64,000 nt of DNA from Candidatus Eremiobacteria bacterium (GTDB lineage: Bacteria; Vulcanimicrobiota; Vulcanimicrobiia; Vulcanimicrobiales; Vulcanimicrobiaceae). This document shows, piece after piece, positions 45,001 through 48,000 of this stretch. Each line of letters starts with the position of its first letter. The stretch's first letter is position 1. The DNA lies in the NCBI GenBank assembly GCA_963758295.1, contig CAVWUU010000004.1:672001-736000 (forward strand), written 5' to 3'. Position numbers: made by a program.

Positions 45001-48000
45001 CAAGATTTTTCCCGCGATATCGTTCTGCTGCCCTGCGGTGTTTTGCGTGTCCCCCGCGATTGTTGCGATTAGCTTTCGTAATCGCTGCGCGAGGGCCGCT
45101 GCTTGTTCTGCAGCCGTTCCTGGCGGAGCGTTTCCGGGTGGAGCAAGCGCATTCGCGATGGAGTCCACGAGTGAGGATTTCAATCGAGCGCTCGTGCTTG
45201 CACCCGTTTGCGACGGCAGCTGTTGCTGCACGGCGCTCGCGAGTTGTTGCGCGAGACGATCGATGATGGTTGACATTGGGGTACCGCTTTTTAGCAGAGC
45301 CGTTAGTTGCGCGAGCGGGTCGCCGGCTGTTCCGGAGCCGTTCGTCGCGCTGGAAAACAGCGAGGCGAAAGTCGTTCCGTTCGACTGCGATGAGGGGAGC
45401 AAGTCCGGCATCAACCCGAACCAGTTCACGTTCAGCGATCCGTCGGTCATTGAAGCGTGTTTCGTCCCTTCGAACGATAGCGGCTTTGCGTTGGAGCCCA
45501 ATGCATTAATGGAATTCACTTCTGTTCTCACCTCCTTTCCACCAAAGTCAAATGGGAGACCATGGATTGGTCTCTCATAATTACGTCATCGGCACTCTGC
45601 GCTAGCTACCTTAGAGGCAGTGAAGGGCGCCAGCCGGCGCATCATTTGGGCGAAGTCCGCCAAGTCGAGCGCTTGTTCCTTATCCGACAGCGCGCGGCTG
45701 GGGTCGGGATGGACCTCGACGATGGCGCCGTCCAGGCCGGCGGCCGCCGCGGCTGCCACGAGAGGAGCGACTAAGCTTCGGCGCCCGGTCGCGTGGCTCG
45801 GATCGACGATAACCGGCAAGTGCGTCAGTTCCTTGAGGCGCAGCGCGCCGGCTAGATCGAAGAGGTTGCGCGTCTCCGGATCGAAGCCGCGGACGCCGCG
45901 TTCGCAGAGGACGACGTTCCGGTTTCCGTCGAGCAACAGGTATTCCGCGGCACACAACACCTCGTCGAGGGTCGCCGCGGGGCCACGCTTGAGCAGCACA
46001 GGCCGCCCCGTTCTCGCGGCGGCCCGCAAGAGCGCGAAGTTTTGCATGTTCCGGGCGCCGACTTGGATCATCGCCACTCGCCGTGCAAGAAGGGCGAGCT
46101 GCTCCTCCGAGGTGGCTTCGACCACCGCCGGCAGGCCGTGCCGCTCCGAGACCTGCGCGATCAGCTCCACTCCGCGTTCGCCCAACCCCTGGAATGAGTA
46201 CGGAGACGTGCGCGGCTTGAAGGCGCCGCCGCGCAACATCGCGGCGCCGCTCGCTGCTACGCCTCGCGTGACGGCTTCCATCTGCAACTCGTCTTCGATC
46301 GCGCACGGCCCGGCGATCATCGTGAATCCGTCGCCGAAGCGAACCCCGTCCACCTCGACGATCGACCCTTGCTCGGAACGGCGGCGCGCCAACTCGTACA
46401 TCATTTCTCTTCACCTTGCGTCGCGAAAAAATAAAAACCGCCCGGTGATCCGGACGGCCTTCTTGACTAGCTAAAACTCGTACGTGCTACGTCATGACAA
46501 AGGCGCGCGCCTCACCGGCAAATGCTGCGGAGAGATGCCACCACCATGCGAACGTACGGAGCGTCGTCATTGCGCGGAGCTTACCACGCCGGCTCCGCAC
46601 GCGTCAACACCGGCAATAGCCAGCATATTTTTCACGATGCGGCCGCCGTGTTCGCTGAGCACCGACTCGGGATGAAATTGCACGCCGTGCACCGGTAGCG
46701 TGCGATGCTGCACACCTTGGATTGCGCCGTCACTGCTGCGCGCGGTTACGAGCAATTCCGACGGGAGCGAATACGGATCCAAACACAACGAGTGGTAACG
46801 CGTCGCCGTGAACGGTGAGGGGATCCCCGCAAAGATGCCGGTGCCGGTATGAGCGATGGCCGAAGTCTTTCCATGCATCTGTGACGGCGCGTGCGTGACG
46901 ATGGCGCCGAAAGTCTCGCCGATCGCTTGCAATCCAAGGCAAACGCCGAAGACGGCCATCTGCCGCTCGATCGCGCTTTTGAGTACCGTCATCGTGCGCG
47001 GCTGCTGCGATGGATTGCCGGGCCCGGGGCCGACCACGAGCAGCGCGTACTCATTCAAAAGCGACGGAACGAGCGCCGGGTCGTCGTTCAATAGAACATC
47101 GGGAGCAGCGCCTGCCGATGCCAGCAAGTGCACGACGTTGTACGTGAAGCTGTCGTAATTATCGATAAAGAGCAGACGGCTCGGTTGCATCGTCTTTGGG
47201 CCTACAACGATTGAGTCGGGAGTCCCTGGGCGCGAAAACTCCGCGACGGGTATTTAAGGGTCATGAATCGTCCGCTTACACCGCTATTCCAGCTCGGCGC
47301 CTTGGGATTACTCTTCGCCCTGTCCGCTTGCGGCGGAGGCTCCTCTTCCTCGACGGCGTTGCCTTCGATGAACGCCTCACCGTCGATGGACGCGCACGAT
47401 CTGCTGGCGCAGGCGGCGGCAACGCCGATGCCGTCAACGTTGAGCCTCTACTCGGGCGCAACGTTCGGAATCGACAACAGTTTCACGCCCAGCGACGGCG
47501 ACAGCTCAACCGGCGGCAACGGCCAAACGATCGACGGCATTACATGTGCTACGTCGATGGTCGAAAATAAGTATCACGTTCATCTATTTGTCGGGCTGCT
47601 CGTGAACGGCGTACAATACGCTATTCCCGATGGTGTGGGCATGGATGTGCCCGGCGCTGATTCGAACGGTTTCACAAACAGCGCGAAGTGCTTCTATTCC
47701 ATTCACACGCACGACGCTTCGGGCATGATTCACATCGAATCAGCTTCCACCGCAGCGCTTTCTTCGTCGATTTTCAAACTCGGCAATTTGCTCGACGTTT
47801 GGGGGCAAAGCATCTCGGCGAATAACTTCGGCCGTTTCACCGGACCCGTGCACATTTTCTATTCAACCGTTCCGCTGCGTTCGACGTACAGCAGCACGTA
47901 TAAAGCCTACACCGCCGATCCCGGGACGCTCCCGTTCTACTCGCACGAAGCGATCTGGATCGAAGTCGGCTCAACGTACCGTACGGCTACGCAACTTCCC

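Follow-up and report, generated by a model that had tools for sequence, protein, structure and literature searches.

In Escherichia coli, the trpL-trpEDCBA operon is attenuated through a short ORF with tandem Trp codons and through protector, antiterminator and terminator pairings, with termination as the default if the leader is not translated, and one of the DAHP synthase isoenzymes, encoded by aroH, is under Trp-specific control by TrpR. In Corynebacterium glutamicum, a leader-peptide attenuator in front of a DAHP synthase gene has been described, aroR-aroF (Neshat et al. 2014, summarized in PMC11802643). Seliverstov et al. (2005; PMC1262725) reported candidate attenuators with double or triple UGG leaders for trp and trpS2 genes in Corynebacterium and Streptomyces, and none before genes of the aromatic common pathway. 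In mycobacteria, leaderless polycysteine short ORFs are reported to place the sensing ORF at the transcript 5' end, from where it controls the genes behind it (bioRxiv 10.1101/834739).

The locus described here lies on the minus strand of the window, i.e., the whole stretch of 64,000 nt that was analysed (positions count from its first letter). A short ORF with three consecutive Trp codons lies there, flanked by trpG and a DAHP synthase gene, and is followed by a hairpin and a T run. The earlier note had read this arrangement as a tryptophan leader-peptide attenuator, and our analysis supports that reading, with the element being conserved together with the DAHP synthase gene in 26 of 26 aligned relatives. 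It resembles trpL in its tandem Trp codons, its candidate protector, antiterminator and terminator pairings and the default termination proposed here. It differs from trpL in that the Trp codons precede the first hairpin and are not inside it, the loop of the terminator is also part of the candidate antiterminator, DAHP synthase is the target, a Shine-Dalgarno (SD) motif is absent and a 5' UTR is predicted to be absent, and the Rfam family Trp_leader is not matched. Trp-specific control of an isoenzyme would be shared with aroH, which is governed by a repressor protein and not by an RNA/ribosome switch.

The nearest described case is aroR-aroF, where, according to PMC11802643, a short ORF with aromatic codons likewise precedes the DAHP synthase gene and stalling raises transcription. 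The newness that the earlier note had claimed for this target is reduced accordingly. The two systems belong to different lineages and act on different DAHP synthases; aroR contains Phe-Tyr-Phe and a Phe response is reported for it, as opposed to Trp-Trp-Trp here and mixed Tyr/Phe/Trp runs in other genera. The actinobacterial attenuators of PMC1262725 share with the present element UGG runs, GC-rich terminators with poly-U and a position of one of them before a tryptophanyl-tRNA synthetase gene, and differ from it in phylum and sequence. Attenuation by leader peptides, worked out in Proteobacteria and Actinobacteria, would now include a large family whose members are nearly all represented by metagenome-derived genomes.

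The regulated gene (45586..46404) encodes a 272-aa DAHP synthase of type Ibeta that comprises the catalytic core only (Pfam DAHP_synth_1, 231 bits; NCBIfam TIGR01361, 333.9 bits at a cut-off of 267.75) with an SD-like motif of its own (AAGG within aaggtgaagagaa). Elsewhere, the source genome (G000) encodes another DAHP synthase that shares 55% identity with the 272-aa enzyme. Devoid of an allosteric domain, the 272-aa enzyme would be an isoenzyme dedicated to Trp whose control apparently takes place on the RNA, a reading that can aid its annotation. Upstream lies trpG (46567..47190; anthranilate/aminodeoxychorismate synthase component II; Pfam GATase, 166 bits; NCBIfam TIGR00566, 179.2 bits at a cut-off of 121.05), which is separated from trpE (53981..55348) by ~6 kb of opposite-strand genes in the source genome and adjoins it in other genera. 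The remaining genes, trpDCFBA (C4:434-439 kb), are located downstream of rpsD-rpoA, and the 459-nt gap before trpD contains no ORF of at least 150 codons. A leader was looked for before trpG, and in the source genome before trpE, and none was found.

The leader ORF (46487..46570) consists of 27 codons and a TAG stop and encodes MTTLRTFAWWWHLSAAFAGEARAFVMT. Its codons read ATG ACG ACG CTC CGT ACG TTC GCA TGG TGG TGG CAT ... ATG ACG TAG, with the proposed sensing site, TGG TGG TGG, at 46538..46546, and its ATG (46570-46568) overlaps, within ATGA, the stop codon TGA of trpG (46569-46567). Direct reading of the sequence confirmed the ORF, the overlap and the three Trp codons as originally described. 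Genome-wide, 13 stop-to-stop frames of at most 60 codons have three Trp among four codons; WWW occurs in two of them and a hairpin with T run follows only the leader ORF. The aligned set of 26 distinct relatives represents eight genera, and in every relative the leader ATG has the same frame as the Trp codons, from which it is 7, 8 or 9 codons away, while the place of the stop codon relative to the RNA motifs varies.

A sigma-70-like promoter, TTGAC(A/G)-17/18-TAnnnT, ends 7-10 nt before the leader ATG in all aligned relatives (26/26) and has an extended -10 TGn in 20 of them; the -10 boxes agree with TATAAT at only 3-4 of the six positions. In the source genome, the last ~15 codons of trpG, up to the TGA in ATGA, span this promoter. 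The -35 box TTGACG (46602..46607) is within the trpG 3' end and the -10 box TAAGCT (46578..46583), with TGn before it, ends 7 nt 5' of the leader ATG, so that the predicted transcript start is at the AUG or 1 nt before it. SD-like motifs are found at none of the 26 leader ATGs versus 23 of the 26 DAHP synthase starts. Because of the conserved promoter 7-10 nt before the ATG and the lack of an SD motif, translation of the leader probably takes place on a leaderless RNA. A leaderless sensing ORF, predicted here, would be a likeness to the mycobacterial short ORFs, which sense Cys instead of Trp (bioRxiv 10.1101/834739).

The hairpin and T run reported between the ORF and the DAHP synthase gene were confirmed by terminator scan and folds as a terminator-like site with 13 pairs, seven of them G-C (46462-46433), followed by TTTTTATTTTTT; the putative intrinsic terminator as a whole (46426..46462) has a stem 46462-46450/46445-46433, the loop AUCA (ATCA in the DNA) and a T run to 46426. 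The terminator scan alone shows no excess, since four sites in 45000-48000 compare with 3.2 +/- 1.7 in shuffles. In alignment A1, 93% of the terminator cells are paired, compared with 33-58% in slid controls, and both sides have changed in four pairs. On a wider model-fitted alignment (62 rows), terminator and hairpin P1 are jointly 92.5% paired and each terminator pair is at least 83% paired. P1 (46510..46535; UCUCUCCG ... CGGUGAGG) is located directly 3' of the Trp codons, has 84% of its cells paired on A1 with four of eight pairs invariant, and contains the invariant CCGGUGA in its 3' arm. Its role may be that of a protector or a pause hairpin. In full-length MFE folds, the terminator coexists with P1 and with base pairing between the first codons and the ORF end, a protector (1:2) pairing that might give termination without leader translation.

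The upstream side of the candidate antiterminator (46491..46518) is formed by CCGGUGA and GCGCGCCUUU..UGAC. In silico, CCGGUGA can pair with the terminator loop UCA plus CCGG, and GCGCGCCUUU..UGAC with GUCA..AAGGCCGU at the terminator foot. Two invariant motifs, ACCGG of the terminator (loop and 3' arm) and CCGGU of P1, are complementary to each other; helix A is 92.9% paired, and since helix A and most of P1 do not vary, they show no covariation. For helix B, the duplex energies differ only weakly from those of shuffles (0 to -2.8 sd), with positive values in genera g49, g28 and g6. The stalled state was folded with the ribosome placed on the Trp codons, using the alignment columns of the 26 sequences, and compared with dinucleotide shuffles. 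In the constrained fold of the source genome, the 5' arm and loop of the terminator have upstream partners for 17 of their 21 nt, which is reached by 0.5% of shuffles. Across the 26 sequences, 12-18 of 18-21 nt have such partners when the first 4 nt of the terminator 3' arm are counted together with its 5' arm and loop, a value reached by at most 5% of dinucleotide shuffles in 15 sequences; the antiterminator is weak in g66, g28 and g6, and in g49 it does not surpass the shuffles (fractions 0.30-0.64). In equilibrium folds, upstream pairing of the terminator arm is greater for the stalled ribosome than for the ribosome at the stop codon in 15/26 sequences and greater than without a ribosome in 19/26, with stall and stop states unseparated by equilibrium folding in 11/26.

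Judged from its short Trp-codon ORF and intrinsic terminator, the element is a likely member of the ribosome-mediated leader-peptide class. We consider it likely that it acts as a classical attenuator of this class that ties the 272-aa enzyme, a second DAHP synthase that lacks a regulatory domain, to the supply of charged tRNA-Trp. Transcription would start at the promoter buried in the trpG end, 0-1 nt before the leader AUG, and a 70S ribosome would load on the leaderless RNA. With Trp plentiful, the ribosome would reach the stop codon and cover GCGCGCCUUUGUCAUGAC, the terminator would form and RNA polymerase would halt ahead of the DAHP synthase gene. When Trp is scarce, the ribosome would stall at UGG UGG UGG and melt the P1 5' arm, and the freed CCGGUGA...GCGCGCC... 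would pair with the emerging terminator 5' arm and loop, giving read-through; the kinetic order of these folding steps is part of the model. If the leader were not translated, P1 and the pairing of the first and last ORF codons would hold these segments and termination would be the default. The element would in this form be a compact natural candidate for a Trp- or aromatic-responsive switch.

Five of 61 family genomes had been found to match in the earlier note, from which the element appeared to be seen in few relatives; our covariance model R1 detects it in 54 of 151 family genomes, spread over 29 of the 78 genera. Where inspected, the site is always before DAHP synthase, trpE or, in the source genome (C1:151092), trpS. 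Among the 26 aligned relatives, an ORF of at least 240 codons begins at most 101 nt from the T run in all, and a DAHP synthase N-terminus starts 25 of these; the source genome is outside the 25, another frame having been picked there, and its DAHP synthase gene was established from the ORF and Pfam. DAHP synthase after the element was Pfam-confirmed in nine genomes and in 12 more, and three of 21 downstream frames (G068, G120, G089) had no family match, probably through choice of the wrong frame. The decisive evidence that the element is not a product of chance is that relatives have the ORF and hairpin again, with the same gene behind them. In a sample of the phylum, R1 had matches in 17 of 71 genomes from the own family and gave no true match in the other 20 families (79 genomes); matches in two of five genomes of family f19 were bare terminator hairpins without a leader ORF. 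A strict pattern, TGGTGGTGG-N10-30-CCGGTGA, occurs in 67 of 348 family genomes and was dropped, many of its matches being coding (e.g., the recurrent TGGTGGTGGTCTTGCC...). In other phyla, a scan for short WW ORFs in the 600 nt upstream at 80 loci around DAHP synthase relatives yielded no recurrent leader; the only recurrent WW ORF, LAWWE.ET at three Acidobacteriota loci, was an out-of-frame reading of the N-terminal regulatory domain of the enzyme.

An aromatic-codon run is kept in 51 leaders of the DAHP synthase type, seven of the trpE type and one of the trpS type. The DAHP synthase leaders have WWW (n = 28), WW or WYW flanked by Tyr/Phe (n = 21) or plain WW (n = 2), and in other genera include mixed Tyr/Phe/Trp runs such as FAYWYWFF or YSYWWY. 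Six of the seven trpE leaders have WW or WWW and one (G083) a single W, and the trpS leader of the source genome has WW. Leader codon content, as read from the sequences, agrees with the target, with Trp only for trpE and trpS and either Trp or Tyr/Phe/Trp for DAHP synthase. One RNA cassette of promoter, leaderless ORF, P1 and terminator appears to be reused before trpE, trpS and the DAHP synthase isoenzyme gene.

The earlier note had seen stop-start coupling to trpG as the operating principle, i.e., the leader would mainly be translated by ribosomes that end at the trpG UGA and restart at the AUG, with the attenuator acting within a joint transcript of trpG and the DAHP synthase gene. In the source genome and in G253 the ATGA overlap does exist, trpG transcripts must enter the leader because trpG has no terminator of its own, and on such transcripts restart is the only other route to leader translation in the absence of an SD motif. 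However, the overlap is limited to these two genomes of one genus (g1), a directly upstream trpG is elsewhere 10-48 nt away, and G027 (g28) and the g49 genomes keep the element without trpG directly upstream, while the fixed-distance promoter is kept in all 26 relatives. Moreover, ATGACG starts 14 of the 26 leaders, so the TGA in that frame exists anyway and a longer trpG just runs into it. We therefore regard coupling as an unlikely main route and do not retain it as the operating principle, although the leader of the source genome could also receive ribosomes leaving trpG. That the hairpin merely terminates trpG or trpE-trpG, with an unregulated DAHP synthase promoter and an incidental small ORF, is extremely improbable: the hairpin does end trpG transcripts and P1 and helix A lack covariation, but aromatic-codon ORF, ATG-promoter distance and frame are kept across 24 genera, the promoter is upstream and not downstream of the terminator, and related elements precede trpE and trpS.

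The sequence conservation of P1 and CCGGUGA is stricter than a plain hairpin requires and might point to a protein, tRNA or small molecule that sets the switch there, as in TRAP-, T-box- or riboswitch-like control. Two alternative partners of CCGGUGA account for this invariance, and the codon runs vary with the regulated gene, for which a ligand sensor has no need. None of 4227 Rfam families matches the element, and cmscan of 45500-48500 at E<=10 gave only chance matches to chrB-a and sR7 and none to a T-box or, as already noted before, to Trp_leader (RF00513). The TRAP gene (Pfam TrpBP, PF02081) has no match in the 82% complete source genome, with a positive Bacillus subtilis control, and we hold a ligand-set switch to be highly improbable. 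It is also very unlikely that the leader peptide itself, or the leader RNA released on termination, acts in trans in addition, like peTrpL/rnTrpL of Sinorhizobium meliloti. Such roles are reported for a trp attenuator in PMC7298713 and PMC6614838, and within genera the part of the peptide that follows the Trp run (HLSA..AGEAR) is similar; against this, the peptide similarity coincides with the RNA motifs, over which the frame shifts between genera, and peptide length varies from 18 to 30 residues in the 26 aligned relatives.

Ribosome-mediated attenuation, the preferred reading, may reach beyond DAHP synthase. The gene order places the attenuator amid a flagellar gene cluster: fliF-G-H-I-J, a ylxF-like gene, trpE, trpG, the attenuator, DAHP synthase and fliK-flgD-flgE. 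Because no T-run terminator is present between the DAHP synthase gene and fliK, the attenuator may also gate the hook genes. Control of hook gene transcription, which would tie flagellum assembly to aromatic amino acid status through tRNA-Trp charging, is a doubtful extension with little probability in its favour; if true, it would link starvation to motility via a leader peptide.

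The gene for a DAHP synthase of type Ibeta (46404–45586, minus strand; 272 aa; Pfam DAHP_synth_1, 231 bits; TIGR01361, 333.9 bits at a cut-off of 267.75) is most likely controlled by ribosome-sensed tryptophan attenuation. The enzyme aligns to only positions 70–330 of the 338 of NF006421 and is therefore without the N-terminal regulatory domain. Another gene elsewhere on the contig encodes a further DAHP synthase of this type (287 aa, 55% identical), and a search of the genome returned no type II enzyme. Upstream, trpG (47190–46567, minus strand) ends in a TGA (46569–46567) that overlaps the ATG (46570–46568) of a 27-codon leader ORF, MTTLRTFAWWWHLSAAFAGEARAFVMT, as ATGA. 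This ORF, read from the sequence on the same strand, carries three Trp codons (46546–46538) and stops at TAG (46489–46487); 24 nt further lies a terminator hairpin (46462–46433, minus strand; 13 pairs, loop AUCA, then TTTTTATTTTTT), identified by folding and a terminator scan. Leader ORF, WWW run, ATGA overlap and hairpin before the DAHP synthase gene had been proposed in an earlier note and proved correct in every detail by sequence reading, folds and profile matches. The reported lack of an Rfam Trp_leader match also held: even at E ≤ 10, an Rfam search of the attenuator region returned nothing for the element.

By DNA search, pattern search and fetching of regions, we gathered 27 distinct copies of the DAHP-synthase type and two of the trpE type. 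Twenty-six of the former, from eight genera, were aligned (alignment A1; L057, a near-duplicate row of genus g49, was omitted). All 26 have TTGAC(A/G), a spacer of 17–18 nt and TAnnnT, an ATG 7–10 nt past the -10 box in frame with the Trp codons and 7, 8 or 9 codons away from them, and an ORF of at least 240 codons that begins at most 101 nt from the T run. Twenty-five of these ORFs open with a DAHP synthase N-terminus; the gene of G000, the genome under study, was established separately by ORF reading and Pfam. An extended -10 TGn is present in 20 of 26 copies. SD-like tetramers precede the DAHP synthase start in 23 copies, whereas no copy has one in the 18 nt upstream of its leader ATG. The ATGA overlap occurs only in G000 and G253; where it is absent, the trpG stop lies 10–48 nt upstream of the leader, and trpG is missing from the immediate upstream position in G027 and the g49 genomes. 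The stop-start coupling to trpG claimed earlier is thus real as an overlap in two genomes and does not extend to the other relatives. Because promoter and ATG spacing is invariably kept, SD-like sequences are absent and the overlap is so restricted, we take the conserved unit to be a predicted promoter with a leader ORF that is leaderless or nearly so. The overlap itself is most simply explained by a lengthened trpG reaching a TGA that ATGACG supplies in the trpG frame. Transcripts that run on from trpG necessarily still encounter the element, and in G000 their leader could be translated by a restart at the overlap; we give this route a minor role.

A covariance model built from the alignment (R1) matches 54 of 151 family genomes and 29 of 78 genera (52 of 149 genomes, with genus g65 lost, if the unpublished G028 and G234 are left out), and the element is hence not confined to the few relatives (5 of 61) counted previously. 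In a sample of the phylum, R1 matched 17 of 71 genomes of the same family and had no true match in 79 genomes of 20 other families; two matches in another family, f19, were bare terminators and were rejected as attenuators.

Full-length folds contain the terminator, a hairpin directly after the Trp codons (P1) and base pairing between the first codons and the ORF end. In A1, pairing reaches 93% in the terminator, where four pairs are changed on both sides, and 84% in P1, which is mostly invariant; slid controls reached 33–58%. In a wider model-fitted alignment, which leans towards the model structure (62 of 71 rows, after dropping seven duplicate or partial rows and two without AUG), 92.5% of cells pair and each terminator column holds several pair types. 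The 3' arm of P1 contains an invariant CCGGUGA complementary to an invariant ACCGG and one to three loop bases at the terminator top (helix A; 92.9% paired, no covariation). Downstream of CCGGUGA, the foot of the terminator 5' arm finds partners in GCG(C/U)GCC and in a genus-specific stretch (helix B): UUGUCG with CGACGA in g73, g19 and part of g1, UUUCGA with UCGAAG in g8, and GGUCGU with ACGAUC in g66. Helix B duplex energies lie only 0 to -2.8 sd from shuffles. With a ribosome set on the Trp codons in constrained folds of the 26 sequences, 12–18 of the 18–21 nt in the 5' arm, the loop and the first four bases of the 3' arm find partners upstream. The 17 of 21 nt in G000 were matched by 0.5% of dinucleotide shuffles, and the observed pairing was reached by at most 5% of shuffles in 15 of 26 sequences; it is no better than shuffles in g49 and weak in g66, g28 and g6. 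Equilibrium folds told the stalled state apart from a ribosome at the stop in no more than 15 of the 26 sequences. The alternative, antiterminator pairing is, in these models, present and mostly better than chance, and we infer its kinetic use. A ribosome stalled at UGG UGG UGG would leave the antiterminator uncovered and transcription would read through; a ribosome at the stop codon would cover it and the terminator would form. The terminator would form too on a leader that is not translated, its RNA held by P1 and by the pairing of first codons with the ORF end. The isoenzyme without allosteric domain would accordingly be produced under a shortage of charged tRNA-Trp.

In several genomes, R1 gives another, weaker match about 2 kb upstream, before trpE, with leaders such as MQFFAASWWRPADRNNR. 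Homologous WW/WWW leaders with terminators precede trpE in many relatives (loci L149 (G011), L152 (G007), L036, L198, L201, L207, L208, L210 and L212), which thus possess a pair of attenuators separated by about 2 kb. No leader was found before trpE in G000, G073 and G027; that of G088, MIVRIAAWNRWHWLPGVQR, looks degenerate, having a hairpin but no T run. The second attenuator of this RNA family in G000 lies outside the window (C1:151092-151208, plus strand; locus L190:293-415), where leader MFDARAWWRPVTD, with a promoter-like TTGACG-17-TACCAT and the terminator AAAAAGCCGCCGG...CAGGCGGCTTTTTT, precedes trpS (tryptophan--tRNA ligase; TIGR00233, 264.9 bits vs a cut-off of 176.75). We tabulated 59 leaders: 51 of the DAHP-synthase type (target Pfam-confirmed in 21 genomes, otherwise assigned by N-terminal likeness), seven of the trpE type and the trpS leader. 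Among the 51, WWW is carried by 28, plain WW by two, and WW or WYW with Tyr/Phe flanks by 21 (L178, L180–L189, L194–L206, L211), giving mixed three-aromatic runs such as YSYWWY, YFYWWYF, FAYWYWFF, FSFWWY and FSFGYWYWF. The trpE-type and trpS leaders have Trp only, and those of the DAHP-synthase type are mixed, WWW or plain WW; therefore, the codon run follows the regulated gene. Such a tie is what a ribosome-sensed switch would predict and a ligand- or protein-sensed one would not; a search for TRAP found no such gene in G000. The runs further suggest a general aromatic sensor in the mixed-run genera, of which the G000 clade would carry a Trp-only derivative.

The kind of regulation, leader-peptide attenuation, is classical. 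The Trp-controlled DAHP synthase isoenzyme of E. coli, AroH, is a counterpart in logic to the putatively Trp-attenuated enzyme of G000. Among described systems, aroR-aroF of C. glutamicum comes closest: the leader before a DAHP synthase there is reported to have Phe-Tyr-Phe (PMC11802643), as opposed to Trp-Trp-Trp in G000. For Actinobacteria, attenuators of trp and trpS2 whose leaders have two or three UGG codons are predicted (PMC1262725), and leaderless sensing short ORFs are reported in mycobacteria (10.1101/834739). According to a 2010 survey, leader-peptide systems had until then been shown only in Proteobacteria and Actinobacteria, to which the survey itself adds Firmicutes (PMC2965389). 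Searches of the literature outside subscription journals found no Trp-codon leader before a DAHP synthase. New features are the lineage carrying such an attenuator, its Trp-only form before a DAHP synthase isoenzyme, the repeated use of a single cassette (for trpE, trpS and DAHP synthase) and the location within a flagellar cluster.

Twelve annotated family genomes have the common order fliF-fliG-fliH-fliI-fliJ, ylxF-like gene, trpE, trpG, element, DAHP synthase gene, fliK, flgD, flgE, and three aromatic-pathway genes are therefore embedded in the flagellar cluster; in 10 of the 12, fliK comes immediately after the gene for DAHP synthase. The cluster occupies 39000–61600 of the window (minus strand), with motA and motB further on past flgE. 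The sole signal past the DAHP synthase stop is a hairpin directly behind it, GAGAGACC...GGTCTCCC (45550–45585, minus strand), without T run and kept at the same position in G045, G088, G253 and G259; a strong fliK SD comes next. This hairpin could serve in processing or stabilisation, or act as a weak terminator. In G000, trpDCFBA lie away from the trpG locus, behind rpsD-rpoA, and trpE (53981–55348, minus strand) is found 7 kb upstream on the same strand. About 6 kb of opposite-strand genes (47263–53303, plus strand) part the two: a hormone-sensitive-lipase-type esterase (50068–51006), an SDR (51019–51861), a monooxygenase-like ORF (52365–53303) and two ORFs without family. The congeners G253 and G045 also have inserts at this site, that of G253 carrying an FAD-dependent aromatic-ring hydroxylase; in other genera trpE and trpG are adjacent. 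Beside trpE lie a 243-aa ORF (53269–54000, minus strand) and a 221-aa ylxF-like ORF (55359–56024, minus strand), both without NCBIfam match; the G007 homologue of the latter has an MgtE_N domain, as in YlxF-type flagellar operon proteins.
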